The translations under genes and the position numbers were made by a program. DNA of 64,000 bases. Origin: a bacterium. Its GTDB lineage: Bacteria; Patescibacteriota; Saccharimonadia; Saccharimonadales; SZUA-47. The stretch's first letter is position 1, and each line of letters starts with the position of its first letter. The stretch is taken from assembly GCA_030428125.1 (NCBI GenBank), contig JAUIBF010000001.1, forward strand, positions 162,793 to 226,792. The letters run 5' to 3'. Under the pieces are notes generated by a model that made no database searches, was not told the origin of the DNA, and saw only the letters and a program-made list of their open reading frames with translations. This document shows, piece after piece, positions 18,602 through 43,918 of this stretch.

Positions 18602-18985
18602 TGGTGGAGCTGGTGGGAATTGCACCCACGTCCATCGGCTAACTCATTGGATGACTACAAGCTTATTTTGTTTAGTGTGTCTTAGGTCAAATAGCTCTAA
18701 ACAAACAAAATACTAAATGACGGCAACCTTAAAATCTTAATACAACCCTTAAGGTGGCGGGGAAGTAAGCATCAGATAATATAAGACCCTCTGACTTTTA
18801 TCTGAGTCAAAGAGAGGATCGCAGTCTAAATAATTAGGCTGCTAGTGCGAATTGACGTTGCGCTAAAACGCGGTCTGCCATTTCGCTCAAAGATGTTTTT
18901 GCATCTATTGTTTTGCCCTATAACGGTGAGCAACCGGCTTGCCATGCCAACTTGTCAAGGTCCAATGTCGAGCTATATCAGCCCC
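18602..18985 (-). ncRNA. ssrA: tmRNA (ssrA), about 384 nt. The inferred tag is (A)DRVLAQRQFALAA.
   Basis: The minus strand reads 5'-GGGGCTGATATAGCTCGAC...-3' and ends ...GGACGTGGGTGCAATTCCCACCAGCTCCACCA-3'. This matches the canonical tmRNA tRNA-like ends, with a G-U at acceptor pair 3. The internal frame GCA GAC CGC GTT TTA GCG CAA CGT CAA TTC GCA CTA GCA GCC TAA encodes ...FALAA followed by a stop. Confidence 0.85.
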
Positions 18986-25524: not shown

Positions 25525-25601
25525 GCGGGTGTAGCTCAGTTGTTTAGAGCGCATCCTTGCCAAGGATGAGGTCGAGAGTTAGAGTCTCTTCACCCGCACC
25601 A
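25525..25601 (+). tRNA. tRNA-Gly (anticodon GCC), CCA encoded. It is the integration target of the downstream island.
   Basis: GCGGGTG-TA-GCTC AGTTGTTTA GAGC-G-CATCC TTGCCAA GGATG-AGGTC-GAGAG TTAGAGT CTCTT-CACCCGC-A-CCA. Confidence 0.9.
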
Positions 25602-27238
25602 TCAACGAAATCATCGTCATTAACGAACCCATCCCAGGGTTCGTTTAGTTTATAAGTAACCTTTGACCCCTTATAAGTACCGTCTTGGACCGGCGTAATT
25701 GTGAAATTAGAGAAGAAAATTCTTAGCAATTCGTCCATTGCCTTCATGTCGCGAATTTTGCTAAGGATAACAGGGGTGAGTTTTAGAAGTTTGAGATAAT
25801 CTTCAAAAGTTGGGATTGCGTCATCAACCTGCTTTCTTAGCAGCTGAGCTTTTTTGTAATCCCTCTTAAGGTTAGTGATTTCTTTTTTGTTCTTGCCCAA
25901 ATCGTAGTGGTCTTTCATCTCAGGGCTTTCAAGTATTAGGTCTTTTATCTTCTGATACGAAGTCTCTTTATTCGCGAGAACTCGCTTAAGTCTTGCAATG
26001 TCACTGTCAAACTCAGCAGTCTTTCTTTTTGCCTCTTTCTTTGCGGATTTAAGGTAATACTGGTAGTTGCTCTTTGTTATGAAAAGATGCTGTCTGAAGA
26101 AGTGTTGAGCCTCGTCAATAACAAGACCAGCGCGAGCAGATTTATTCCGCATGACACAGTTTTCCGTTTCGCATTTGTAGTAATATCGCGCATGTAAAAC
26201 CTCGCCAGTTTCTTTGTCTCTCTTGGGTACTAGCATTGATGTAAGAGACTTTTTGCATTTACCGCAGTAGACCATGCCTCTCAGCAGGTCAGCTTGTATA
26301 TTGCCGCCCTTAGGTCTATTGATAGCAAGAATTTTTGCGTCTCTTAGGTCATCTATCTTATTAATCTGTAAAAATTCATCAACAGACACCACTGGTTCAA
26401 AGTTGTATGCATCAACTAGGTTAGTCAGATTTTTACCCCACTTATGAACTCCGGCATAATGTGGGTCGCGTAGCATCTTAGACACATCGTCTTTGTCCCA
26501 TACATGGCTCACATATTTGCCGCCAGGGAGCTTTTGGACCGTATATTCCTGCTTATTTATCCAAATGCGGATATCTTTCTGCGACTTGCCGCCAAGAGCC
26601 ATCTCAAACATGTGTTGTATCTTGGCAAAGTTAAGCGGATCAGGTCTAAAATAGCGTTTCTCGTCAACTACATAGCCGTGCTTAAACTTACCTATAAATT
26701 CAGCATCTTCAACAGCCCGTCTGTTGCCTCTATCTACCGACTCCGATAGGTGTTCTGAGTATTGTTTTGCCATGACAAAAGTAATGCCAAGTAGCATCTT
26801 GCCAGCAGGAGTGTTTTCAAAAGTGAAAGTTGCAAATCGCAAATCCTTTATAAGGCCTCTGTCTACTAGGTCTATAATTGCGCCAGCCTCTTTCATGTTG
26901 CGAGAGAGTCGGTCTGGATGCCATGCTATAACTCCCTCTATACGACCACTTTCAATTTCTTTTATTAGTGCATTAAACTCATCTCTAAGATCGGCTACTT
27001 TTGCCGAATAACTTTCTTGGTAAATCTTTACGACATTGAGGCTGTTTGGCGTGACAACCTTTTCCATGCACTCCTTCACCTGATCTTCTATAGATGAAGC
27101 CTGTCTATCCTCGCTAGTCGTAGACTTACGTGCATACAGAGCGTAGCGTATCAGCTCAGGATTAATCTCCCTAGGGTCTTTATCTTGTCCTGCCTGCAAC
27201 ATCTCCAGCAGTTGTTGGGTGCTTTTACTATCTGCCAT
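25544..27238 (-). CDS. Large serine recombinase (phage-type serine integrase). Its C-terminal 19 codons overlap the tRNA-Gly gene.
   Basis: Catalytic YALYARKSTTSEDRQASSIEDQ (Ser in RKST), DRLSRN, a recombinase domain, a zinc ribbon CGKCKK...YYYKCETENC and a coiled-coil tail. Confidence 0.85.
   Translation of the reverse strand: MADSKSTQQLLEMLQAGQDKDPREINPELIRYALYARKSTTSEDRQASSIEDQVKECMEKVVTPNSLNVVKIYQESYSAKVADLRDEFNALIKEIESGRIEGVIAWHPDRLSRNMKEAGAIIDLVDRGLIKDLRFATFTFENTPAGKMLLGITFVMAKQYSEHLSESVDRGNRRAVEDAEFIGKFKHGYVVDEKRYFRPDPLNFAKIQHMFEMALGGKSQKDIRIWINKQEYTVQKLPGGKYVSHVWDKDDVSKMLRDPHYAGVHKWGKNLTNLVDAYNFEPVVSVDEFLQINKIDDLRDAKILAINRPKGGNIQADLLRGMVYCGKCKKSLTSMLVPKRDKETGEVLHARYYYKCETENCVMRNKSARAGLVIDEAQHFFRQHLFITKSNYQYYLKSAKKEAKRKTAEFDSDIARLKRVLANKETSYQKIKDLILESPEMKDHYDLGKNKKEITNLKRDYKKAQLLRKQVDDAIPTFEDYLKLLKLTPVILSKIRDMKAMDELLRIFFSNFTITPVQDGTYKGSKVTYKLNEPWDGFVNDDDFVDGAGEETLTLDLILGKDAL
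25581..25599 (+). repeat. attL core, direct repeat copy 1 (inside tRNA-Gly).
   Basis: Identical to 32024-32042. Confidence 0.85.
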
Positions 27239-27638
27239 ATAAACAGTATATAAGTTTTAAAGCCCATAGTTAGAGCTAGATCAGGCTATTATCTTATAAG
27301 ATGATTTTTGTGCCATTTTTAACAAGGTAAGGTTTTGATTGCGCCTCGGACTCAGCATACACAGATAGGATACTGAGAAGCGCCACCACACCAAAATCAA
27401 GGTTATTCTGTAGAGAAACGGGCATCCCAACAACTCCTTGAAGTTTTCACTTCAGTTAGCCGCTCATAAGCCCGTTTTTTGCCGAGTCGTCCTCGTAATA
27501 CTTATTGATTTGGTTCTATGCGCCTTGCCCCAGTCTTTTTAGTGGGTCGTCTCCACGATGGCTGCTACATAAAACACGGAGTTTATTATTAAGGTACTTT
27601 CTAGTATCTTTTGTCAGTCCGGTATAGTCAAGCCAGCA

Positions 27639-28046
27639 CTATAGTCGCTTGGGTATAGTTAATACTATGTTTACTTCACCATCTTCAATTTCATACTCAC
27701 CCCAACAACTTACTGTTTTACCTGAATTAACTAAAGCCGCAATCTGTGTGGCAGTCGGCTTTCCCTCGTAGGCTACATAGCCCAGCCAATTCTTGCTAGT
27801 TGTTTCCGTGCTTGGATAGTTGTTTACGTTATAAAACTCGCCATTAGGCCAACCCTTACTGATTTGGAAGTTATTTTTGGGACTAAGCGAAAAACGAATT
27901 GGAGTATTTAATTCCAAGGAAGCTGATTGATTTTTTCTCCATACCTCCCCCTGAACATGAACCCTTATCGGACCTTTTGGAACTTCTACGGTTTCTTCGG
28001 CGGGTGCATCATCCTTACCGATTAATTTTTTTAGTTTAGATAACAT
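27639..28046 (-). CDS. Hypothetical protein, 136 aa from an internal ATG with RBS GAAGGGGAAAT. The ORF track extends to 28157.
   Basis: The ORF and RBS match the pattern used elsewhere in the window. No motif. Confidence 0.45.
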   Translation of the reverse strand: MLSKLKKLIGKDDAPAEETVEVPKGPIRVHVQGEVWRKNQSASLELNTPIRFSLSPKNNFQISKGWPNGEFYNVNNYPSTETTSKNWLGYVAYEGKPTATQIAALVNSGKTVSCWGEYEIEDGEVNIVLTIPKRL

Positions 28047-28376
28047 ACATTTCCCCTTCATTGGTTGATGAAGCGGGTCAATAAAAAAAAGGACAACCCG
28101 CAGGTTGTCTAAAACCAGTACCAGCTTACGCCGAATACTTTTACGCGAGTTGCCCATTTTTTGGCATAAACACGCAAAATGCGATATTTGATACTGGTTT
28201 TAGACTATTTCATTATACCAATCATCTTAGTTTTCAGTAGTTTTTGCTATTTGGTCAATAGACCCCCAAAAATTCGCCATTGCTATTTTTGCTCAGAAAA
28301 ACGCTTGTCAAAATCGGCCCCGAAAATTCGGCATTTATACAGCGGAGTCCCGGCAACAGGGGTGGAGGGCAACTTC

Positions 28377-28410
28377 CCCCCTAGTATTGGAAAATCCAAT
28401 ACTAGGGGAA
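28377..28410. promoter_or_regulatory. Perfect 13-bp inverted repeat ccctagtattgga-aaa-tccaatactaggg in the divergent intergenic region. Candidate operator.
   Basis: Palindrome read directly from the sequence. Nearby direct repeats aaaattcgccatt / aaaattcggcattt lie at 28269-28281 and 28323-28336. Confidence 0.4.
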
Positions 28411-28462
28411 ATTAAAACTCCTTATGCTATGGGTTTAGTGCTGCTAGGCGTAAAATTGAAGT

Positions 28463-28648
28463 ATGTCAGACATTGAAAAAGAAGTATTGCATAAATTTAA
28501 AACCGAACTTTCGGGGATTGATAAGATTTCCCAGCAATTGTCTGATGCGCTTTGCGTAGAACTTGAAAAAGACTCACCCAGCGTAGAGACGTTGATGAGC
28601 ATAATTCAGCTGAAAAAGGGGTTTATTTCCGATGATAAAGCTGGGTGA
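28463..28648 (+). CDS. Small 61-aa protein, translationally coupled (17-nt overlap) to the downstream ATPase gene.
   Basis: The ORF end overlaps the ATG of the 817-aa gene. Confidence 0.4.
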   Translation: MSDIEKEVLHKFKTELSGIDKISQQLSDALCVELEKDSPSVETLMSIIQLKKGFISDDKAG

Positions 28649-31085
28649 ATTACACATTGAAGAATTTAGAGGTATCCGCCAATTAGATATTGATTTTAAG
28701 TATCAATCTTTTGCTGTTCATGGACCAAATGGTTCTGGTAAAAGCGGAGTGGTTGATGCAATTGGCTTTGCACTTAGTGGAACTATAGCGAGGCTAACTG
28801 GTGCTGGTACACGGTCAGTTTCGGTGAAGGCTCACGCTCCACACGTAATGAGCAAGGACGATCCTAGCTCGTCCCGGGTTTCACTTACGTTTAAAGATTT
28901 AGTTAGTGGACAGATTGGAACTATCACTCGGACGGTTCAAGACCCACAAGACTTTACACTTTCACCAGACACACCTGAGCTTAGAGCTGCGCTTGAAAGT
29001 GCACTTAAGCACCCAGAAATTACTCTATCTAGGAGAGAGATCATAAAGTTCATACTTGCAGAAGCAGGTAAAAGATCAGAGGAAGTGCAAGTGCTCCTGC
29101 AGCTAGATAAAATTGATGCAAATCGTAAGGTTCTGAAATCAACACAAAATAAAGTTGACTCAGACAAACGTAATGCCGCTCAACAAGCCACACAGGCGAA
29201 ACAAGCAATGGAATTACATCTTGGTATCAGCGATTTGGATGCAGAAAAAGTTAAGGACAAAATAAACCCGCATAGGAAAACCCTCGGTTTAACTGAATTT
29301 AAGAAAGTTGATCTTTCTACTAACTTGCGTGAAGGTTTGGATGAAAAAGACGAAGAGAAACCATTTGACAAAGAGACTGCCAAAAGAGAGGTCAAGGCAT
29401 ACGAAGACGCTATAAGCTCTTCGCCGACAATTCTTACGGAGACAGTAGTTGAATTAATCAAAGCCCTGAAAGAGCTGGACGATGACGCAAACCTAGAACA
29501 GCTTAAGAACAGGAGTTTTTTGGAGTCTGGACTTGAACTGGTTGCAGAAGAGGGGGTATGTCCACTTTGCGATAAAACTTGGCAAACGCCAGACGAACTC
29601 AGAGAGCACCTGAAGCATAAAATAGAAAGCTCAAAGGAAATAGCGAAAATCAGTGAGAATATCGTTCTAAAGGCAAATGACGTAAAGGATGCTATAGGAG
29701 ATGAGCGTGCACTATTGTCTCAGGTTCAGAAACTCTCTGTGAACTGGTCTGATGTTGACGATCAAAACTTATTTCAGTCAAGAATGGACTTGCTACTTGA
29801 GTTTGGTACATTGCTAAAAGATGCTAAAGGATGTGTTGACACACAAGACCGGCTGGAAGCCGGTGACTTAGATGCCAAGAGTGAGCTGCTTGAAGCAATA
29901 GGTAGACTTAAAGATAAGATTGATAAGCAGGCTGACACTTCCGAAAAATCAAAATCTCGTAGTCATCTCATACTGGCAGCTGAGAGATGGACCGCATTTG
30001 CTAATGCTAAAGTAAGCGAACAGCGTGCACTGAACTCATCAGAAAGAGCTGAGTTGGTTTACAAATCATACTGCAAGGTAGCTGATGCAGAACTAGAGGA
30101 GCTTTATGAAAGTGTTGAAGCAAGATTTAGTAAATTCTACGGTCAAATTAATAGTGATGACGAAGAGGGTTTCAAGGCCGAATTCAAACCTACGGCAGGA
30201 AAATTAGACCTTTTTGTTGATTTTTACGGCATAGGAATGTTTCCGCCCGGTGCATACCACAGTGAAGGTCATCAGGATGGTATGGGCATTTGCCTATACT
30301 TAGCCCTAGTAGAAAAAATACTGGGCAAAAATTTTAGCTTGTCTGTACTAGACGATGTAGTAATGTCTGTGGATGTAAATCACCGGAGACAGTTTTGCGA
30401 GCTACTACAAAAAGAATTTCCAGATACCCAATTTATTATTACTACCCACGATGAAATATGGGCAAAGCAAATGAAAACCACTGGGCTAATAGCTAGTAAA
30501 TCTGATATTCGCTTTAGGGGCTGGAGCGTAGATCATGGGCCTATATATGAACAAGGGGAAGAATTCTGGGACAGAATAGATGAAGACCTAAAGAAGGGTG
30601 ATGTTCCAAGCGCCTCTCATAAACTTCGTAGAGGTCTTGAGGCAGAGTTACCCGACATTGCTGAGGCAATGGCCGCAAAGGTAAAGTATCGTGGAGATGC
30701 AAAATACGAGCTTGGCGAGCTTACGGACGCCATAAAGTCTAGGCACGCTGGCTTATTAAAGTTGGCTAAAGAGTCAGCTAGTTCGTGGAACAAAAAGGAT
30801 GACCTTGAAAAAATAAAACAAATTGATAAGACACGAATTGAAGCAGCGCTTTCTCAGCAACGCGAGAACTGGGCAGTAAATTTACAGGTTCATTTCAACG
30901 ATTGGGCAGACATGTCTGTTAATGATTTTAAGCCTGTTGTGGAAGCGTGGCACACATTCTTAGACCTTTATAGATGCGGCAACGATGCTTGCGAGTCGTG
31001 GATAGGGGTAACTTACAACTCCGGTGCGCAAGAGAGTTTGCGTTGTCGCTGCGGCGAATACAATCTTAATTTATTGAAAAAGTAG
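28632..31085 (+). CDS. Rad50/SMC-like ABC ATPase with a coiled-coil CxxC zinc hook and a ~230-aa C-terminal domain. Candidate RloC-like anticodon nuclease / defence ATPase.
   Basis: Walker A GPNGSGKSGVVDAIGF. Long charged coiled coil with CPLCDKTW in the middle. Walker B/D-loop LSVLDDVVMSVD and H-loop FIITTHD. C-terminal RRGLEAE...(+35)...SRHAG, i.e. R-x3-E then His, as in the PrrC triad. Terminal Cys cluster CGNDACESW...CRCGEY. Confidence 0.7.
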   Translation: MIKLGELHIEEFRGIRQLDIDFKYQSFAVHGPNGSGKSGVVDAIGFALSGTIARLTGAGTRSVSVKAHAPHVMSKDDPSSSRVSLTFKDLVSGQIGTITRTVQDPQDFTLSPDTPELRAALESALKHPEITLSRREIIKFILAEAGKRSEEVQVLLQLDKIDANRKVLKSTQNKVDSDKRNAAQQATQAKQAMELHLGISDLDAEKVKDKINPHRKTLGLTEFKKVDLSTNLREGLDEKDEEKPFDKETAKREVKAYEDAISSSPTILTETVVELIKALKELDDDANLEQLKNRSFLESGLELVAEEGVCPLCDKTWQTPDELREHLKHKIESSKEIAKISENIVLKANDVKDAIGDERALLSQVQKLSVNWSDVDDQNLFQSRMDLLLEFGTLLKDAKGCVDTQDRLEAGDLDAKSELLEAIGRLKDKIDKQADTSEKSKSRSHLILAAERWTAFANAKVSEQRALNSSERAELVYKSYCKVADAELEELYESVEARFSKFYGQINSDDEEGFKAEFKPTAGKLDLFVDFYGIGMFPPGAYHSEGHQDGMGICLYLALVEKILGKNFSLSVLDDVVMSVDVNHRRQFCELLQKEFPDTQFIITTHDEIWAKQMKTTGLIASKSDIRFRGWSVDHGPIYEQGEEFWDRIDEDLKKGDVPSASHKLRRGLEAELPDIAEAMAAKVKYRGDAKYELGELTDAIKSRHAGLLKLAKESASSWNKKDDLEKIKQIDKTRIEAALSQQRENWAVNLQVHFNDWADMSVNDFKPVVEAWHTFLDLYRCGNDACESWIGVTYNSGAQESLRCRCGEYNLNLLKK

Positions 31086-31097
31086 AATAATACTTTT

Positions 31098-31715
31098 TCA
31101 ATAAGGTATCTGTTTGTTCAAAAGGATAATTTCTTTTAGCTTTTCTTCATCCGTTAAGTTGCGTATATGGTCACTTACAAAAGACGCAAGTTTTAACAGT
31201 AGCTCATCGCGAAGCATTTGGTGGTGGAAGTATATTATTTGCAGATCTTCTCCCTCAATACTAAGAGGTGGAGCAATCGCAACCGCCCTGTGCTTGTGGT
31301 GTTCGTCCCATTCCTCTACCACCTGGTTTGACCATTTGTTAACATCAAAACTAACGTTGGTTTCCAGACCTTTGTACTTATAGTATGAATAGAAACTATT
31401 TGATTGCCCTACATGCGCAAAGGGATGTCTGCCTGATTTCCAAAAAAGTTTGCACAATTCCTTATCCCAGCCCCAAGCATCATGTAATACATTCGCAATA
31501 GTTTGAACATTTGGAAAAGTCTTGCCGCTATAAAAAGTTACAAGCCATTCAATATATGAAAATGTGCTAGACCATAATGAAGATGCTTTAAGTGAGTAGA
31601 AACTATCTATGCCGTTGCTGTGAATGTCATCTGAGATTGTTTTTAGGTAGTTAATCCAGTTTGATGCTTTGTTATCAATGGCGTTCGCTTGGCTGTTATT
31701 TACACTTGGTATCAT
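31098..31715 (-). CDS. Hypothetical Trp/Tyr-rich protein, convergent with the ATPase gene.
   Basis: ORF only. Confidence 0.45.
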   Translation of the reverse strand: MIPSVNNSQANAIDNKASNWINYLKTISDDIHSNGIDSFYSLKASSLWSSTFSYIEWLVTFYSGKTFPNVQTIANVLHDAWGWDKELCKLFWKSGRHPFAHVGQSNSFYSYYKYKGLETNVSFDVNKWSNQVVEEWDEHHKHRAVAIAPPLSIEGEDLQIIYFHHQMLRDELLLKLASFVSDHIRNLTDEEKLKEIILLNKQIPY

Positions 31716-31900
31716 GCGAGAATTATAACAAAGCTGTCCTTGGTATGATTAACAAGAGTCACGAACATTATCTAAAATTTTCAGTAGATAATTTTCTCCT
31801 TACCTATTTGTGATGATTGAATACTGGGAGCACTTGAAAGACTGCCGTCCACTATTGCGCCGAAAAGTTTGAGAACGTTCTGTAGCTCCGCACCAAGAAA

Positions 31901-31928
31901 AGAGAGCCCAGAACGGGCTCTTTTTTCT
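31901..31928. terminator. Hairpin agagccc-agaac-gggctct flanked by an A-tract and a T-tract. Bidirectional terminator.
   Basis: Seen in the sequence, followed by ttttttctt. Confidence 0.5.
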
Positions 31929-32023
31929 TGATTTGGTGGTGACTCTCAGATTCTCAACCTCATAAAAATAATTTATCCGTCGAGAGTTGTAGCCCTTTCT
32001 TGCCCGGCACGGTCAAGAAAGCC

Positions 32024-32042
32024 AGAGTCTCTTCACCCGCAC
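32024..32042 (+). repeat. attR core, direct repeat copy 2 (partial tRNA-Gly 3' end).
   Basis: Identical to 25581-25599. Confidence 0.85.
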
Positions 32043-36003: not shown

Positions 36004-36145
36004 GTCAATTTGTATTGCCGCCAGGTTTCTTCAAAAAGGCCATTCAATCTATACCACATTAGCTATATTGTAAAATTTACCAAAATGTTTGGAAATACAT
36101 AGCTGTACTGCCATAGTAAGAAGCAACAAACTATCAGGAGGTGAC

Positions 36146-39100
36146 GTGCTTAGATTGCTCAATGTATTTACAAATGGTGGGGTTAAAAAAATAGCGTTCG
36201 TTGCTATTTTATTGGTAACTTTATCCGTCCCGGCGTTAATATTCGGGCAGGGTTCGTTTTTGAACACACCACATCTATCGTTTGATGGCTCTAACGATAA
36301 AGTAGACCTGCAGAATCTAGATATAAGTGGTAGTGCATTGACATTGGAAGTTAATTTTAACTCCAGTGACTTAGATAACTGTGGTAGCTATTTAGATTGT
36401 AGAATAATCTCTAAGTCCGTCGGTACAGCGGACCAAGATCATTATTGGATGCTTTCAACAATAAAAAATAGTAGCAACCAAGCCGTACTTAGATTTCGTC
36501 TAAAAACTGGCAGTAGCACATCAACTCTTATTGCAAGTTCGGCCGTAGTTAACGAGAACGAATGGAATCATGTAGCTGCTACCTATGATGGTTCTATGAT
36601 GAGATTATATTTGAACGGTAACGAGGTTGGATCTGCGCCGAAATCCGGTAACTTAGCTACGAACTCTAGCGTAAATGCCTACATCGGTAACAACCCGGTT
36701 ACTTCTAAGCCGTTCGAAGGGTTAATTGATGATGTCAGAATCTGGAACATCGCTAGGACACAATCCGAAATTAGTGATAGCAGAGAAGCAGAACTTACTG
36801 GTTCTGAATCTGGTTTGGTGGGTTACTGGCGATTTAACGAAGGCGAAGGACAGTTTGCTCACGACTCATCTGGTAATTTAAACGATGGAATCCTTGGGGA
36901 TGCCGTATCTGTTGATAGTGCTGACCCAGTTTGGTTAAATCTTGCAGCTGACGTAGAACCACCTACACAAGTCACCAACGTAACAGCGGATGTCATATCC
37001 TCTAACCAGGTTAACCTAGACTGGGATGTTAGCAGTGACGATAGAGCAGTTACTCAATATGTTGTAGAGCGTAATCAAGTAGAAATCGCAGCTGTTTCGA
37101 GCAATGATTTTGTAGATACTGGCCTTAGCGAATTAACAACTTACGAATATGTTATTTATGCTGAAGACGAAGCTGGAAATCGCTCAGTTGGTTCAGAAGC
37201 GATCAGTGTTCAAACTCCTGTAGCCCCTGACACAGAGGCGCCCACAGTTCCACAGAATCTACAAGCTGTCGAGGTAAACGAAAGTCAAGTTGACCTAGCT
37301 TGGGAAGAGAGCACCGATAACGTAAGTGTAACCCACTACAACGTTCTAAGAGATGGTGCATTACTAGAAACAATTGTTGCTGCAAACACTTATACTGACT
37401 TAACCGTTACACCAGGTGTAACCTACACGTATGCTGTAAATGCAGTAGATGCAGCAGGTAATACATCGGCCGATAGTAATACAGTTCAGACTTTGATCCC
37501 AACTCCTCCCGATAACGATCCACCAACGACGCCACAAAATCTTCAAATCGTATCATCCACCGACGAAGAGGTTAACCTGGACTGGGACGATAGCACCGAC
37601 AACGTTGTGGTTCTTAGGTATTTGGTCGTACGCGACGGTGTTCAGATAGCAGAAGCGCCTAATTCAAGCTTCACGGACACCGAATTTACTATTGGTGTCG
37701 AACACACTTACGAAGTCTACGCCGAGGACGCATCCAGCAACATTTCTGCTGTGTCAAATCAAGTTTCAGTAACCGTCTTAGACACTACAAATCCTGAACT
37801 TGAGATAGTTAACCCTACGTCAGGACAGTACCTAACAGGAACAATCGCTTTGCACGCAGACGCAACTGATAACGTAGCTGTAGACTACGTCAGGATTTCT
37901 ATAGACGATGTAGAAGTTCATACGGCTTTTGATGCTCCATTTACTTTTGATTGGGACTCGACAACTGTGCCTGATGGCGAACATACAATCAGCTTTGAAG
38001 CATTTGATACCAGTGGAAATAGCAATCTAGCCAGTAGTACACACACAGTTATAAATGACTTTAGTGCAGTGCCACTACCTGGTGGTCAACACGTTGTATT
38101 TGATGGAAATAATGATCGAATTAACTTAGGTGCGCTTGAAGTTGGTTCAAACAGCCTGACTCTAGAAGCTTGGTTTAGAAGCGACGATTTAGGAAATTGT
38201 AGTTCAAATGATTGCCGAATTCTAACAAAGGCTAGTGGAGTAAATACCAACGATCACACCTGGATGCTTAGCACGATAAAGAGTGGCTCCTCAACAAATA
38301 TGAGGTTCAGATTAAAAACAAATGGTTCTACAGAAACGTTGATTTCTAACCAAAATGTCCCTGAGTCAGAATGGGTTCATGTGGCGGCTACTTATGACGG
38401 CAGCCAAATGCGAATTTACCAGAATGGCCAACTAGTCGGCCAACAAAATGAAACTGGTTCAATTACTTCAGAACCAAGCAAGCAGGCTTGGATTGGTTCC
38501 TCGCCAAACAGTGGGCTAAGACCTTGGCTAGGCGAGGTAGACGACGTGCGAATTTGGAATGTAGCGCGGAGCCAGCAGGAAATCGCAGATAACATGAACT
38601 ACGAACTGACAGGCGTAGAAGACGGATTGTTTGCTTACTATAAACTTAACGAAGGTGGTGGCCAGCTAGCCTACGATGCTACAGGCAACCAATCAAACGG
38701 AATTATTGGTTCTACCGATCAAGTTGATGACAACGACCCAGCTTGGGGATTAGAAGCTCCAGATACCGAAGCACCTTCGTCACCAGGCAACCTGCAGTCC
38801 GGATCAGTAACCGACAACTCGTTCACATTAGATTGGCAAGCCAGTACAGATAACGTTGCGGTAACTGCTTACGAAGTTGTCATAGACGGCGTTGTTCGGG
38901 AAGTTATCGGTACCCAAACAAGCTACCTAGTTGATAGCTTGCAACCATCCACGGAATATATAGCTCTCGTACGAGCTTACGATGCTGCTGGTAACCTGTC
39001 TAGCGACTCCAATCAAGTGATAGTTACGACAACAACTCCAGACACAACTGCACCTGTAGTCTCGATTGATTCGCCACTAGACAGTGCAGAATTAACGGGG

Positions 39101-42100
39101 ATTGTTGATGTCACACTCACTGCAAGCGACGATCAATCACTAGATTACGTGGAAGTAATTTTAGATGGCTCGGTGTTAGAAACACTAACTAGCGGACCAT
39201 TTATATATTCTTGGAATACAGCAACGGTTAGCAATGGGCTTCATGATCTTTCAGCTCGAGCAGTAGATAGCTCTGGCAATGAAACATCGACCAGCACAAT
39301 AGTTGTGGATGTTCAAAATACGACGCCTCCGGTGAACGCGCTTCCTGGTTCACAGCATCTCGTGTTTGACGGCTCTAACGACCGAGTTGATCTAGGCAAT
39401 ATAGATATTCCAGGCAATCAGATGACTCTAGAGGCTTGGGTGAATAGTTCAGATTTATCTAACTGCGCAGCCAGGGATTGCCGAATCATCGCAAAGGCAA
39501 CTGGCGTAAACGATCAGGATCATTATTGGATGGTTAGTACGATCCAGGATGGTGGTAATACAGCCTTAAGATTTAGATTAAAAACCAATGGCAACACCTC
39601 TACACTAGTAAGTTCAAGCAATGTCCCCGAAAATTCTTGGGTTCACATAGCTGCGACTTACGATGGCTCAGCTATGCGTCTATATCAAGACGGAAACTTA
39701 GTGGGAACAACCTCAAAATCTGGTTCAATTACTACTGCTTCAACCGTACCAGCCTGGTTAGGTGATTCACCTGTTGGAAACCGACCATGGCAAGGTGCGA
39801 TTGATGATGTTCGTATATGGACGGTCGCAAGATCACAAGCTGAAATCAGTCAGGCTATGAACCAGGAACTTACCGGTTTAGAAGACAATCTGTTTGCTTA
39901 CTATAAACTCAACGAAGGTGGTGGCCAAACAGCAGTAGATAGTGGTTCAAATGGACTCGATGGTGTACTCGGTTCTTCGACTAACAGTGATAGTGCCGAC
40001 CCAACTTACGGAATAGAAACACCAGACGTTCAATCTCCAACCACACCACAAAACGTCGTGGTAGCAAACGCGTATTCAACCCAAATTGACCTAACCTGGG
40101 ACGAAAGCTTCGATGATCGTATCGTAGCGGGCTATATTGTTCTGAGGGACGGAGTAGAAGTTGGCAATGTAGACACGAACTCATTCACCGATATTTCGGT
40201 CAGCCCGCAGACCTCGTACAGTTACCAAATAGTAGCTTACGACGGTGCCGATAATCAGTCGGATGCTTCCAGTGCCACCAACGCTGCAACTAGTGAAGTA
40301 ATGCCAATTACTTTCAGTGGCGTTCAGGTAGATAGTGTTTCTACTGACAAAGCTACAATTTCTTGGCAAACTAACGATACGGCGTCAGGAAAGATCGAGT
40401 ACGGCATTACTACAAGCTACGGATCAGAAACTTCCGAATCTGCTAACTTGCAGGCTTCGCACACCCAGGAACTGACTGACCTAGCAGCGGACACTGTCTA
40501 TCACTTCAGGATTGTTTCTACTAACTCATCGGGCACATACACCTCAGAAGATTACACGTTTACGACTTCTGGTAATATCGTAATCGGCGGAGAATTCGGA
40601 TTCGAATACGAAACAATTAGCGACGTTAGTGGTACTGGTGGCCGAACAGCTATATCGGACATCGATGGCGATGGTTACAACGATGTCGTAGTGCACACCT
40701 GGGCAACTAACCGTGGAAACGACGATAATGGAACCCTTATTTGGTATAAATACCCAGACTGGACTCCTACAACTGTTCTGGACAATACAAATTTCTTCGG
40801 TGATGGAATAATTGCAGCCGATCTAGATGCCGATGGTGATATGGACATAATTACCTGTAAGGGTAGCGATTCCGACCCTAGTATTTACTGGTACGAAAAC
40901 CCCGGCGATGGCAGCGGTAATTGGAACGAATCTTTTGTGTTAAAAATGGAAACGGGCTCAGAAGTAAAAGATATCGAAGTCCACGACATGGATCATGACG
41001 GCAAACTGGACATAGTTGGTCGGTCTAAGCATAGAACAACAATCATGTACCAAGACAATCCTCAGTCTTGGGATGTGCGGGAAACTATTACCCAAGAACG
41101 CGAAGGTATGATGCTTGGTGATGTTGACCACGACGGGGACGAAGACATAATCATCAACGGTTGGTGGTTAGAAAACCCAGGTGTTAGAGCAACGGATCAG
41201 CTAGAAATCCACGACTTTGATTCTACCTGGAACGGGCAATCTGGTGGTAGTTTCAGGGACAACGCCGTAATGATTTCTACCGGTGACTACGATGGCGATG
41301 GCGACGAAGATTTTGCTGTTAGCCATGCCGAACATCCAGGATATACAGCAGCTTGGTACGAAGCTGTAGACCCTAAAGCTGGCGAATCAGGGTTCATCAA
41401 GCACCCAATCGCTACCGTAGATTATGGCCACAACAATGCATCAGCCGACTTTGACTTAGATGGTGACGTTGATATCTTGATCGGTACAACCACTTGGGCC
41501 GGAAGTAGCAATAAAATCTCGGTGTTCCTAAACGACGGCACTGGTGAAAACTGGACAGAACATGTAATGTGGAACACTGCAGGATATAAAGGAGTTATCG
41601 GCGACATCGATAATGACGGCGACATGGACTTTACAAGTTCCAGAAACTGGGAAACCCATCCTGTGTATGTACTTCGAAACACATCGGACCCTGTTTTTAG
41701 GCCAACCGACCCAGCTCTAGACATGTGGGAGCGACACGAAGTTGACCAAATGGCATGGCGCGGAGTTTTCGTAGAGCACGCTGACCTAGACGGAGACGGC
41801 GACGAAGATGTTGCATCTGCTGGCTGGTGGTACGAAAACCCAGGTGAATTATCAGGTCAGTGGATCGAACACACCATCGGTTCACCACTAAATAACTTAG
41901 GCGCAATTTACGACTTTGATGGCGATGGCGACATGGATATCCTAGGAACAGAGGGCCAAGGTTCGACATCTAACCGTAACCTTGTTTGGGCCGAAAACGA
42001 TGGCAGCGGTAACTTTACAGTCAGGACAAACATTAACACTGGCGGAAGTGGAGACTTCTTGCAAGGTGTGGCTGTCGATAGATTTACCGATGCCGGTCCT

Positions 42101-43918
42101 CTGCAAGTTGCCATGTCCTGGCACAACGGTGGCGGTGGAGTTCAAATGCTTACCGTACCGTCTAATCCAAGTACTGAGCAATGGACCTGGCAGCAAATTT
42201 CATCGACTACTCAGGGCGAGCAGTTAACAGCTGGCGACATCGATCAAGATGGCGACCGCGACTTGTTGCTGGGAACAATCTGGCTGGAAAACAATTCCGG
42301 TGTCTGGACACCACACGTAATGTACGAACCAAGTGGCATAGATAACACACCAGACAGAAGTCGCCTAGCAGACATGAACGGCGACGGCAGGCTAGATGCC
42401 GTTGTGGGCTTCGAAGCCATAAGTATCCCTGGCCGCTTGGCATGGTACGAACAACCCGCCGACCCAACCGGAACATGGACAGAGCACATAATTGACGAAA
42501 CAATCATCGGCCCAATGAGTCTGGATGTATTAGATATGGACTACGACGGCGATATCGAAGTGGTCGCTGGCGAACATAACCTAGCCAACACTTCTGCCGC
42601 AAGGCTGTTCGTTTACGAAAATATCAACGGTGACTCTACTGAGTGGACTCAGCATGTTGTATATACTGGTGACGAACACCACGACGGCGCACAAATAGCC
42701 GACCTAGATAATGATGGCGATTACGACATTGTATCGATTGGTTGGGGTGCAAGGCGTGTTACGGTTTACGAAAACACTACCCCCGTAGCAGGAGCTTGGT
42801 GGAGTGACGCCCACAGCTTCCGTTTGCCACTAACATTTTCACCAGATGACCAACAGCGACAAGATTACGTTGTCGAGACGAACCTTAACTTTACCGACCA
42901 ATTTAATCAGGCGAACTCTCCTGGCGCATTAATAGAAGATTCTATAAGGGTTGTAGAAACAGACGAAAACGGCTTTGTAATTAACAGCTCAGTGGCGCAT
43001 CAGTTCATCCCAAGCAGCGATTATGATGCTTCAACTAACGCAGCTGGAACATTAGCGCTTCTGCTGCCTGGTGTAACCAGTGCCGATGAATCCAGATACT
43101 TTGATGTTTACTTCGATCACAGTGGAGCTTTCCCAGCTATAAACTTCACAGATTTGGTTTCAGTAACCGACGATGTTCAGGACGAAGGTCAAGCAAGTTT
43201 CGAGGTAGTTACACCAAATGCAACTTGGTTGTACCAAAAAGATGCCGGTGGATTCTCTAGCATCATTGATTCTGACGGTAACGACTGGATAGGCTACAGC
43301 ACGGCAACTGGGTCTGCCGGAGAATTCAGGGGTATCCCTAACCTGGTTTACCCAGAAGGTCAGTTCCATCCAGGTGCAACCGGTTCAACTTCAACCCTGG
43401 TTACAGATGGCCCGCTTAAGACAACCATCCATACCACCACAAATGACGATGCTTGGGAAGCTTACTGGCACATTTACCCAACACATGCACAGCTCCAGGT
43501 TGTAAAAACAAATCACAGCTATTGGTTCTTGTACGAAGGTACACCTGGCGGCCAGCTAGATTACACTAACGATTCCGTAACACTATCAAATGGCCAAGTT
43601 TACGGAGCCGATCAAACCTTCCACTTTGATTTCGATGGCGAAGAATGGGCGTACGTTAGCGATGCAGCCGTCAACCGATCTATATTCCTAGTACATCACG
43701 AAGACGATAACGAGATTGATGGATACCGGCCAATGAACAATCAAATGACTGTTTTTGGATTTGGACGCGGCGCCGGAACTGCAACCTACATGGATAATAC
43801 TCCCCAACACTTTAGTGTAGGGCTAATGGACTTAGTCGATTACCAAAACGGAAGCGAAGTTGTTCGGGGTTCCTTCTATCAATATTCAATTACGAATAGT
43901 CCAGTAGAATCAAGGTAG
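36146..43918 (+). CDS. Giant (about 2590-2609 aa) secreted multidomain surface protein. It has 3 LamG/ConA-like modules, FN3 and Ig-like domains, about 13 FG-GAP/VCBS repeats (two beta-propellers) and a C-terminal domain. GTG start with an AGGAGG RBS; the alternative ATG is at 36089.
   Basis: Three paralogous modules each contain LTLEAW..DCRI..HYWM.STI..RFRLKT..W.H.AATYDG..R.Y.NG...DDVRIW..AR.Q.EI. FN3-like ..VNLDWD.S.D...V..Y.V.R.. segments. Repeats of D.D.DGD.D at 40660-42730. Confidence 0.85.
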   Translation: MLRLLNVFTNGGVKKIAFVAILLVTLSVPALIFGQGSFLNTPHLSFDGSNDKVDLQNLDISGSALTLEVNFNSSDLDNCGSYLDCRIISKSVGTADQDHYWMLSTIKNSSNQAVLRFRLKTGSSTSTLIASSAVVNENEWNHVAATYDGSMMRLYLNGNEVGSAPKSGNLATNSSVNAYIGNNPVTSKPFEGLIDDVRIWNIARTQSEISDSREAELTGSESGLVGYWRFNEGEGQFAHDSSGNLNDGILGDAVSVDSADPVWLNLAADVEPPTQVTNVTADVISSNQVNLDWDVSSDDRAVTQYVVERNQVEIAAVSSNDFVDTGLSELTTYEYVIYAEDEAGNRSVGSEAISVQTPVAPDTEAPTVPQNLQAVEVNESQVDLAWEESTDNVSVTHYNVLRDGALLETIVAANTYTDLTVTPGVTYTYAVNAVDAAGNTSADSNTVQTLIPTPPDNDPPTTPQNLQIVSSTDEEVNLDWDDSTDNVVVLRYLVVRDGVQIAEAPNSSFTDTEFTIGVEHTYEVYAEDASSNISAVSNQVSVTVLDTTNPELEIVNPTSGQYLTGTIALHADATDNVAVDYVRISIDDVEVHTAFDAPFTFDWDSTTVPDGEHTISFEAFDTSGNSNLASSTHTVINDFSAVPLPGGQHVVFDGNNDRINLGALEVGSNSLTLEAWFRSDDLGNCSSNDCRILTKASGVNTNDHTWMLSTIKSGSSTNMRFRLKTNGSTETLISNQNVPESEWVHVAATYDGSQMRIYQNGQLVGQQNETGSITSEPSKQAWIGSSPNSGLRPWLGEVDDVRIWNVARSQQEIADNMNYELTGVEDGLFAYYKLNEGGGQLAYDATGNQSNGIIGSTDQVDDNDPAWGLEAPDTEAPSSPGNLQSGSVTDNSFTLDWQASTDNVAVTAYEVVIDGVVREVIGTQTSYLVDSLQPSTEYIALVRAYDAAGNLSSDSNQVIVTTTTPDTTAPVVSIDSPLDSAELTGIVDVTLTASDDQSLDYVEVILDGSVLETLTSGPFIYSWNTATVSNGLHDLSARAVDSSGNETSTSTIVVDVQNTTPPVNALPGSQHLVFDGSNDRVDLGNIDIPGNQMTLEAWVNSSDLSNCAARDCRIIAKATGVNDQDHYWMVSTIQDGGNTALRFRLKTNGNTSTLVSSSNVPENSWVHIAATYDGSAMRLYQDGNLVGTTSKSGSITTASTVPAWLGDSPVGNRPWQGAIDDVRIWTVARSQAEISQAMNQELTGLEDNLFAYYKLNEGGGQTAVDSGSNGLDGVLGSSTNSDSADPTYGIETPDVQSPTTPQNVVVANAYSTQIDLTWDESFDDRIVAGYIVLRDGVEVGNVDTNSFTDISVSPQTSYSYQIVAYDGADNQSDASSATNAATSEVMPITFSGVQVDSVSTDKATISWQTNDTASGKIEYGITTSYGSETSESANLQASHTQELTDLAADTVYHFRIVSTNSSGTYTSEDYTFTTSGNIVIGGEFGFEYETISDVSGTGGRTAISDIDGDGYNDVVVHTWATNRGNDDNGTLIWYKYPDWTPTTVLDNTNFFGDGIIAADLDADGDMDIITCKGSDSDPSIYWYENPGDGSGNWNESFVLKMETGSEVKDIEVHDMDHDGKLDIVGRSKHRTTIMYQDNPQSWDVRETITQEREGMMLGDVDHDGDEDIIINGWWLENPGVRATDQLEIHDFDSTWNGQSGGSFRDNAVMISTGDYDGDGDEDFAVSHAEHPGYTAAWYEAVDPKAGESGFIKHPIATVDYGHNNASADFDLDGDVDILIGTTTWAGSSNKISVFLNDGTGENWTEHVMWNTAGYKGVIGDIDNDGDMDFTSSRNWETHPVYVLRNTSDPVFRPTDPALDMWERHEVDQMAWRGVFVEHADLDGDGDEDVASAGWWYENPGELSGQWIEHTIGSPLNNLGAIYDFDGDGDMDILGTEGQGSTSNRNLVWAENDGSGNFTVRTNINTGGSGDFLQGVAVDRFTDAGPLQVAMSWHNGGGGVQMLTVPSNPSTEQWTWQQISSTTQGEQLTAGDIDQDGDRDLLLGTIWLENNSGVWTPHVMYEPSGIDNTPDRSRLADMNGDGRLDAVVGFEAISIPGRLAWYEQPADPTGTWTEHIIDETIIGPMSLDVLDMDYDGDIEVVAGEHNLANTSAARLFVYENINGDSTEWTQHVVYTGDEHHDGAQIADLDNDGDYDIVSIGWGARRVTVYENTTPVAGAWWSDAHSFRLPLTFSPDDQQRQDYVVETNLNFTDQFNQANSPGALIEDSIRVVETDENGFVINSSVAHQFIPSSDYDASTNAAGTLALLLPGVTSADESRYFDVYFDHSGAFPAINFTDLVSVTDDVQDEGQASFEVVTPNATWLYQKDAGGFSSIIDSDGNDWIGYSTATGSAGEFRGIPNLVYPEGQFHPGATGSTSTLVTDGPLKTTIHTTTNDDAWEAYWHIYPTHAQLQVVKTNHSYWFLYEGTPGGQLDYTNDSVTLSNGQVYGADQTFHFDFDGEEWAYVSDAAVNRSIFLVHHEDDNEIDGYRPMNNQMTVFGFGRGAGTATYMDNTPQHFSVGLMDLVDYQNGSEVVRGSFYQYSITNSPVESR

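Follow-up and report, generated by a model that had tools for sequence, protein, structure and literature searches.

The 64,000-nt stretch of contig JAUIBF010000001.1 analysed here (the window; all coordinates are window positions) harbors an intact tRNA-Gly(GCC) gene whose 3' end is overlapped by the convergent gene of a large serine recombinase (LSR). Upstream of the LSR gene lie a conserved 43-aa open reading frame (ORF), a structured leader, a variable ORF, a candidate small RNA and a conserved non-coding block, followed by a Rad50/SMC-like ATPase gene and a 205-aa ORF (Table 1). At the far side of these genes, we found a detached 3' end of the LSR gene, a second copy of the last 8 nt of the tRNA and a tRNA terminator. 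We are highly confident that positions 25602-31895 form a small integrative element, which was inserted at the extreme 3' end of the tRNA-Gly(GCC) gene by its own LSR. An earlier inspection of this DNA without database searches (the sequence-only reading) had proposed an LSR-mobilised island with non-housekeeping cargo at this tRNA gene, and it was right in kind; its attachment core, its right boundary and its count of cargo genes had to be revised.

Table 1. Features of the tRNA-Gly locus in the window
Feature	Position	Strand	Basis
tRNA-Gly(GCC), intact; attB left half and core	25525..25601	+	ARAGORN; Rfam RF00005, 69 bits
Large serine recombinase, integrated form, 564 aa	25544..27238	-	Pfam, PHROGs
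attL core CCGCACCA, the final 8 nt of the tRNA with its encoded CCA	25594..25601	+	repeat count, L023/L025 pair, circles
Conserved hairpin AACGAACCC-N6-GGGTTCGTT, directly 3' of the tRNA, inside integrase codons (motif LNEPWxGF)	25622..25645	+	terminator-like match
Conserved 43-aa ORF directly upstream of the integrase (MPVSLQNNLDFG...KPYLVKNGTKIIL)	27294..27425	-	tblastn
Structured 5' leader of the small-ORF/integrase operon	27426..27596	-	RNAalifold; promoter-like site 27631-27603
Variable ORF, 135 aa (listed as 172 aa from 28157)	27639..28046	-	ORF list
Candidate small RNA, 123 nt; own TATAAT box (28212-28217), 17-bp closing helix, intrinsic terminator	28083..28205	-	
Conserved non-coding block 1 (GGGGGG...GACTCCGCTGTATAAATGCCGAATTT...)	28291..28381	-	alignment of integrase-upstream regions
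Possible 61-aa ORF, just upstream of the ATPase	28463-28648		
Rad50/SMC-like ABC ATPase, 817 aa, with ~200-aa Cys-rich C-terminal extension	28632..31085	+	Pfam, PADLOC, PDB
205-aa ORF, convergent with the ATPase gene	31098..31715	-	ORF list
Detached integrase 3' end	31781..31894	-	translation; same tail in 28 Gly-clade loci
P arm and attR core, AAAGTTTGAGAACGTTCTGTAGCT-CCGCACCA	31864..31895 (attR core 31888-31895)	+	family consensus, single match in window
Displaced native tRNA-Gly terminator, chromosomal, outside the island	31896..31930	+	stem-loop then T run
Mini-module, ~110 bp, outside the LSR island	31931..32042	+	repeat and hairpin analysis
Inverted copy of the T-arm 5' half in the mini-module	31942-31961		
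Direct T-arm copy GTCGAGAGTT in the mini-module	31979-31988		
Hairpin 2 of the mini-module	31995-32002 paired with 32014-32021		
19-bp copy of tRNA positions 57-75, end of the mini-module	32024-32042		

The LSR (hereafter the integrase) is intact. It matched Resolvase (PF00239, 7.7e-21), Recombinase (PF07508, 6e-12), Zn_ribbon_recom (PF13408, 1.2e-4; 22.8 bits, slightly below its cut-off of 25.3 bits) and the phrog_95 integrase family (7.6e-58). A resolvase-type domain with the R-x-S catalytic context (YARKSTTSEDRQ) is followed by a recombinase domain and a four-Cys zinc ribbon with an inserted coiled coil. The residues R37, S39, C325, C328, C356 and C361 were invariant in 27 homologues, and R37 and S39 were also kept in 35 homologues. 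The AlphaFold 2 model of a relative (P0082) has catalytic, recombinase and beta-rich zinc-ribbon domains and coiled-coil helices at residues 389-437 and 447-473 with a predicted local distance difference test (pLDDT) of ~80-90, and the best PDB folds for it were the full-length SPbeta and PhiC31 integrase complexes (E 1e-19). The identity to known phage serine integrases is ~22%, and the best NCBIfam matches, XisF and CcrB, scored far under their cut-offs. More than 1,000 database proteins resemble the enzyme at 60-94% identity. Residues 1-548 are encoded by the element, and residues 549-564 (GEETLTLDLILGKDAL) come from the antisense strand of the tRNA; the final 19 codons are the reverse complement of tRNA-Gly, so the earlier claim that the C-terminus reads into the tRNA gene was correct. 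Since the odd C-terminal tail GAGxxTLTxxLxLGKxAL recurs across the aligned homologues, these enzymes also read into the tRNA-Gly gene.

A scan of species-representative genomes gave 80 integrase loci, nearly all of them in metagenome-assembled genomes of Candidatus Saccharibacteria. The end of the integrase ORF overlaps a convergent tRNA 3' end in 62 of the 80 loci, and the tRNA identity tracks the integrase clade: 25 loci target Gly(GCC), with at least 60% integrase identity to the window's enzyme, 24 target Pro(TGG/GGG) at 38-49%, 11 target Lys(CTT) at ~31%, and Gln and Leu are each targeted at one locus. Targeting of the tRNA end is the rule for this LSR lineage within Saccharibacteria. Mageeney et al. 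(2020; PMC7192596), with TIGER/Islander, assigned 14 of their 297 serine-integrase islands to t(m)RNA genes; they stated that there was no earlier report of such cases and that these still needed proof. The earlier remark that serine integrases at tRNA genes are uncommon is thus true for bacteria generally and does not apply to this lineage. Their islands and the present ones are alike in the computational evidence for t(m)RNA gene use, whereas here a whole lineage in one phylum uses five tRNA species and has defined att sites, circles and empty sites.

The island junctions lie with high probability at the 8-bp CCGCACCA, which gives a length of 6,294 bp. This 8-mer was found in the window only twice, both times at a junction. 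The distal copy is preceded by the P arm (AAAAAGTTTAAGTAGATTCTGTAGCTCCGCACCA), which stands at the distal island end in 28 of 38 Gly-clade loci and was recognised in 6 more by the peptide motif; the next feature is in every case a terminator like those found 3' of unoccupied tRNA-Gly genes. The family consensus of the P arm matched the window once, where no match was expected. Its reverse complement extends the integrase frame (...DFVxGA-ELQNLLKLFxAxxDGxL...IIY*), from which it follows that the integrase gene contains attP and that the crossover falls in the final 6-8 nt of the tRNA. In the window, the detached tail exon consists of 37 uninterrupted codons that fit the family consensus (GA-ELQNVLKLFGAIVDGSLSSAPSIQSSQIGKEKIIY*), and in the circular form it is joined after integrase residue 546 to give 583 aa. 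The Pro clade has the same layout with the core (T)CGACCA and the tail ...LLELFKYI...LVF*, and so has the Lys clade with the core CTCACCA and the tail GEGRxDxVARLCMVVDW...PCEF*. The identity at the junction spans 8 bp for Gly-clade islands and 6-7 bp for those of the Pro and Lys clades.

Relatives of the island provided both the free and the empty state. The database proteins P0036, P0066 and P0082 (582-583 aa) correspond to the predicted fused integrase. Three circular contigs (L211, L212 and L213; 4.7-5.2 kb, with 30-bp terminal overlaps) have no tRNA, encode a full-length integrase and carry the intact junction of P arm, CCGCACCA and integrase 3' end, which is the predicted attP. L212 and L213, which come from two samples, are exact circular permutations of each other with 0 mismatches over 4,727 bp. 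The tRNA-Gly of L025 is unoccupied, and the 2.2 kb downstream of it are 99.4% identical to the sequence past the P arm of L023; compared with L025, L023 carries a precise insertion of 2,617 bp bounded by CCGCACCA. Presence/absence polymorphism with precise junctions and a circular attP form, as are characteristic of integrative elements, were thus observed in the relatives.

The sequence-only reading had used a longer repeat as the attachment core, namely an exact 19-bp copy of the tRNA-Gly 3' end, with the right boundary at 32042. The repeat itself was re-found. AGAGTCTCTTCACCCGCAC occurs exactly twice in the window (25581-25599 and 32024-32042), no third site appeared when up to 2 mismatches were allowed, and 100 shuffles gave 0, so that it is not a chance pair; the imperfect extension of the similarity on the 5' side, which is weak, was borne out as well (GGTCGAGAGTT vs GGTCAAGAAAGCC). 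A crossover in or after the T loop, which would make 25600-32042 the mobile unit, would suit the window, L006 and L009, since these are flanked by a long repeat starting in the T loop and their left sequence resembles a T-stem half-site. Inward of the long repeat by ~130 bp, the three loci also share AAAGTTT(A/G)AG...TTCTGTAGCTCCGCACCA, after which comes an ordinary terminator. However, long repeats of the tRNA 3' end, all beginning in the T loop, were found in just 9 related loci, and most related islands lack them and have the P arm and the 8-bp core. In the circles, the P arm passes directly into the integrase 3' end and the hairpin module is missing. The break in the empty/occupied pair falls at CCGCACCA, modules ending in a second tRNA 3' copy exist without an integrase, and a host-type terminator sits between the P arm and the module. 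We regard the 19-bp core as hardly credible beside the 8-bp core. A T-loop crossover with the hairpin region as the P arm, which we had considered from the few long-repeat loci, was given up in view of the inner P arm, the tail ORF and the circles.

The distal 19-bp copy closes the mini-module beyond the displaced terminator. A metagenome scan with the window's tRNA sequence gave 120 loci, 103 of them with enough downstream sequence, and the same module architecture was found 3' of tRNA-Gly in ~9 of the 103 without an integrase; it is therefore a feature separate from the island. It adjoins LSR islands in the window, L006, L009, L027 and L028. Hairpin 1 of the module tracks the T-stem sequence of the host tRNA, and hairpin 2 has a stem of 7-13 bp in 12 of 12 modules with unrelated sequences. 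Examples of the module were seen in L094, L100, L136, L149, L152, L179, L184, L186, L006, L009 and L028. The module may be a relic or miniature derivative of a T-loop-targeting element, or a structured RNA or DNA.

These observations make it quite possible, though not the probable case, that the locus is a tandem composite, in which an older non-autonomous mini-element (31896-32042, T-loop type) was joined by the LSR element integrating beside it, and the two may move together. Such a mini-element would resemble the cis-mobilizable elements (CIMEs) known from streptococcal elements (PMC5704250). It is consistent with the occurrence of the module alone at ~9% of tRNA-Gly sites as well as beside LSR islands, and with loci that carry two P arms in tandem. 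On the other hand, no recombinase was identified for the module, neither a circle nor an empty/occupied pair was found for it, and it could be an ancient chromosomal structure or a structured RNA. The tandem composite is compatible with the LSR island at 25602-31895 and does not replace it. The two P arms in tandem lie upstream of one integrase in L003 (4924 and 6132) and L043 (2618 and 3867), which suggests tandem arrays or remnants of successive integrations. At the empty sites of L132, L138 and L156, the inverted/direct T-arm hairpin gives way, 100-300 nt downstream of tRNA-Gly, to a long GC-rich segment in which GCAAGRCCGGAGC motifs recur, and this may be another structured element.

For the LSR island, we propose the following mechanism. 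The exchange of attP with attB would take place inside the 8-bp CCGCACCA, and as a consequence the tRNA sequence remains unchanged. The native tRNA terminator is displaced to the far side of the island, and the hairpin in the integrase coding sequence would substitute for it. A counterpart of this hairpin is kept 3' of every occupied tRNA-Gly; it probably replaces the displaced terminator and/or belongs to the P' arm. The attP lies ~35 codons before the integrase stop, so the free circle encodes an enzyme of 583 aa with the conserved 35-aa tail ELQNLLKLF...IIY. Integration detaches this tail, and meaningless codons from the tRNA antisense strand take its place. The present copy may still be active. 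By analogy with SSV1-type integrases and BPs immunity, the tail swap and the 43-aa protein may govern direction or stability. The cargo would give defence to the host, and because no transfer or packaging genes are present, spread between cells may use the natural competence of Saccharibacteria (PMC10633639).

A further idea, which we hold to be rather doubtful, is that the attP inside the gene acts as a built-in directionality switch. The 583-aa circle form would be competent for integration, and the integrated enzyme, tail-less or with a junk tail, would be silent or excision-only, alone or together with the 43-aa protein. If true, the direction of a serine integrase would be set by its own recombination product and not only by a separate directionality factor, and a ready-made tRNA-targeted integration tool would be available for the genetically intractable Patescibacteria.

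Several points weigh against the LSR island as we have drawn it. The 8-bp core pair alone is not significant, as 27 of 100 shuffles gave at least 2 copies, and for this reason the case rests on the P arm and the comparative data. The circular contigs could in principle stem from tandem chromosomal copies and not from free circles. A dyad-symmetry scan of the reconstructed attP and attB gave no clear centre, half-site palindrome or crossover dinucleotide that could be assigned. The right half of attB varies from genome to genome, an uncommon trait among LSRs, and the integrase tail was modelled with low confidence (AlphaFold 2 pLDDT <45). The phylum of the host, probably Saccharibacteria, is deduced from relatives only. 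Finally, protein look-ups, the genome scan and the metagenome loci gave no empty site or circle for the element or species of the window.

The last point concerns the state of this copy. Essentially all 103 metagenome loci show the CCA followed by the terminator, and the integrase end was seen in one (L176); with about 100 of the 103 copies lacking an integrase, the tRNA-Gly site is usually empty. L087 and over 100 metagenome contigs share the 77-nt tRNA-Gly sequence of the window. The proposal that relatives should have an empty site held for the relatives (L025 against L023, and most tRNA copies unoccupied); for the species of the window itself, there was no close relative to compare. Among the database homologues there was no 583-aa fused protein of ~100% identity to the window's integrase, and the right flank of this species was not found among the metagenome loci. 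Exact-protein look-ups with the integrase and the flanks returned only short Logan contigs of the same strain. One of them, L086 (Logan ERR3428546), bears the strain's CLC channel and ends within the tRNA-Gly D arm, probably because the shared tRNA sequence made the assembly graph branch there, and it says nothing about the island. A genome scan with the flanking CLC channel for an empty site gave no close relative, and the next CLC homologue (L087) is 66% identical. L087 was rejected as an empty site, because another LSR family (22% identity) sits at its tRNA-Gly, which is identical to that of the window.

A fixed relic, that is, a real element no longer mobile in this genome with a domesticated or idle recombinase, would explain why no circle, empty site or population heterogeneity was found for the window's species. 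It would also agree with the composition of the island, which matches the host: in the composition check that the sequence-only reading had suggested, the island is not distinctive in GC (0.414 vs 0.421) or in tetranucleotide usage, in which 13% of equal-sized windows deviate as much. However, exchange inside a single phylum should leave the composition alike in any case. The integrase ORF is intact and has lost no catalytic or zinc-binding residue, both 8-bp cores are perfect, the detached tail exon is uninterrupted, and a 94%-identical integrase stands in a different genome context. A relic is therefore unlikely. Integrases 92-94% identical to the window's enzyme sit at tRNA-Gly in other genomic contexts with other cargo. 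Taken together, the data that could have spoken against the earlier proposal favour mobility, as the repeats are present, the recombinase is intact, and relatives have empty sites and different cargo.

Alignment of the relatives shows how the element is built. The conserved core consists of the tail exon, a non-coding block, an optional cassette of small RNA and variable ORF, the structured leader, the 43-aa ORF and the integrase. By tblastn, at least 25 loci of the Gly clade have the 43-aa ORF; its C-terminal motif is conserved among them, and synonymous changes are seen. No recognisable recombination directionality factor was found in the island, and this ORF is the sole candidate for a directionality factor or regulator. 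To our knowledge, directionality factors have no common sequence family. In the leader, a helix (ACGGGC/GCCCGT) encloses the Shine-Dalgarno sequence and the start codon. On a trimmed set of leader sequences, RNAalifold gave a consensus of 25 pairs. Compensatory changes occur in 7 of these pairs, one being an exchange of GC for AU in 5 of 15 sequences. The 123-nt RNA candidate is more than 90% identical in 9 islands with integrases ~70% identical, has a minimum free energy of -46.1 kcal/mol (z = -6.3), and is absent from some family members. Rfam gave no match for the leader or the 123-nt RNA.

The sequence-only reading had counted five cargo genes, which is an overcount, since conserved non-coding DNA underlies both the 78-aa ORF (28179-28415) and the beginning (25 codons) of the "172-aa" ORF. 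The former lies on non-coding block 1 and its tblastn matches reflect DNA conservation, so it is spurious. The latter probably starts at 28046, because its first 25 codons are the small-RNA candidate. The credible cargo ORFs are the 817-aa ATPase, the 205-aa and 135-aa ORFs and perhaps the 61-aa ORF. The 135-aa ORF had no match in Pfam, PADLOC, PHROGs or NCBIfam, and relatives have different ORFs at its position; the 205-aa ORF likewise had no family match in these databases, and an identical copy of it is on the Logan contig L001. The ATPase matched SMC_N (2.5e-19) and AAA_23 (3.5e-14), and its PDB matches are Rad50 and SMC heads. In PADLOC, LmuB ranked best over the full length (1.5e-22), followed by mad3, PtuA, AriA and GajA. 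It is a probable anti-phage defence gene. The protein resembles Lamassu in the full-length LmuB profile match and in the head - coiled coil - head layout of Rad50/SMC proteins, but it was not filed as Lamassu because no LmuA is present. No neighbouring ORF matched PADLOC (no LmuA effector, no LmuC); the neighbour is an unrelated 205-aa ORF on the opposite strand, and a Cys-rich C-terminal domain is fused to the ATPase instead.

The related islands span 2.6-11.4 kb. Beside the 92-94%-identical integrases, the cargo is a cyclic oligonucleotide-based anti-phage signalling system (CBASS) with a copper ATPase, or a PIN-TPR protein. The families that recurred in a survey of 36 islands with 147 cargo ORFs were GajA, AriA, PtuA-like ATPases, restriction subunits and DNA methylases, CBASS components, KAP NTPases and reverse transcriptases, whereas metabolic enzymes were few. 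Judged from these profile matches, the family cargo is interchangeable and consists mostly of anti-phage systems. The minimal elements of 2.6 kb, found in oral and gut Saccharibacteria, have the integrase module alone and no cargo (L018-L026, L030, L084, L085; e.g. L023:9012-11628); a 52-aa counterpart of the 43-aa ORF and a block similar to non-coding block 1 are present in the minimal element. Two minimal elements are catalogued in IMG/VR as viral contigs. Besides its empty tRNA-Gly (18732-18807), L025 has a minimal element at 10001-11641, which lies ~7 kb from this gene and is not inserted at a tRNA; the junction of this copy keeps only ~CCCCGCACCA. It may be a secondary-site insertion or a rearrangement.

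The presence of relatives in viral contigs and the phrog_95 match of the integrase would also fit a prophage or phage satellite, and a conjugative or mobilisable element was considered together with these. We find this highly improbable. In PHROGs, the island matched only the integrase and, weakly through the ATPase, families without known function, and Pfam and NCBIfam gave no relaxase, type IV secretion or coupling-protein match in the island. Capsid, terminase and replication matches were likewise absent from it, and none of these functions is among the top families of the 147 cargo ORFs. The elements are small, the smallest being the integrase module only, and the identity to phage integrases is low. 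The sole FtsK-like gene encountered belongs to the unrelated island of L087. As the defining components are missing, assignments to Lamassu, prophages, integrative and conjugative elements or integrative and mobilizable elements (IMEs) were rejected. A tyrosine-integrase tRNA island was also rejected, since no ORF between 25.5 and 32.1 kb has a Phage_integrase domain.

Compared with known LSR elements (SPbeta, PhiC31, A118/LI, Bxb1, TP901-1, SCCmec Ccr and XisF), the present element shares the domain order, the short crossover identity and the preservation of the target gene. It differs in that the integrase targets a tRNA 3' terminus and not a protein-coding gene, and in that attP lies inside the integrase ORF, so the C-termini of the free and integrated forms differ. 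Its attB right half is not conserved, it has no recognisable directionality factor, and its identity to phage integrases is low. With the tRNA islands of tyrosine integrases (P4-like; the sublocation classes of Williams 2002), it has in common a tRNA attB restored by the element, an adjacent integrase gene, tandem arrays and variable cargo, whereas the enzyme family and chemistry are different, the identity block is 6-8 bp at the CCA end, and no arm-type sites are evident.

In SSV1-type archaeal integrases, which are tyrosine recombinases, the gene is split centrally by integration and inactivated. In mycobacteriophage BPs, attP lies inside the repressor gene and immunity depends on integration (PMC4557955). 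In both systems, as here, integration alters the 3' end of the gene that crosses attP, and different proteins result in the free and integrated states. Unlike the present case, both use tyrosine integrases and BPs remodels its repressor; here, the last ~35-49 residues of the serine integrase would be exchanged. Defence islands, IMEs and CIMEs (PMC5704250) are likewise small, with interchangeable defence cargo and possible non-autonomous derivatives such as the mini-module, but no relaxase or oriT was recognised here, the hosts are ultrasmall epibiotic bacteria, and the minimal members are 2.6 kb without cargo. In the literature, we found no description of the Saccharibacteria LSR lineage, of the attP-in-gene layout or of the minimal elements.

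Serine integrases are workhorses of genome engineering and had been believed to avoid tRNA genes. The lineage defined here, which spans a phylum, targets at least five tRNA species and comes with attP, attB, circles and empty sites, settles computationally that serine integrases target tRNA genes, and it offers dozens of orthogonal integrase/att pairs. Very few genetic tools exist for Saccharibacteria and other members of the candidate phyla radiation (CPR), and the native 2.6-kb module with its conserved tRNA landing site would be an obvious vector backbone. A testable idea on direction control comes from the split gene. These elements also appear to be a main vehicle of anti-phage systems in the reduced genomes of Saccharibacteria and CPR bacteria.

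A second LSR family was seen at L087:11656-13301 (GCA_030427125.1), where the 526-aa enzyme also reads into the CCA end (...SIWCG*), and its island holds FtsK-like, DUF2958 and type I restriction genes. In an Rfam scan (E <= 1), the tRNA-Gly was the sole match. Its T loop is TTAGAGT, with A at the usual C56, in the window and in all Saccharibacteria copies in L003-L209, and this unusual loop is native to the lineage. The D loop is AGTTGTT(T)A, lacking the usual GG, in the same set, and the two oddities may be a compensating U19:A56 tertiary pair kept across the lineage. Downstream of the island, a giant ORF of ~2,600 aa (36089-43918, + strand) with Laminin_G, Big_7, fn3 and FG-GAP domains has the most deviant tetranucleotide composition in the window. 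A tmRNA with the long tag peptide AKTSLSEMADRVLAQRQFALAA is located at 18602-18985 on the - strand.

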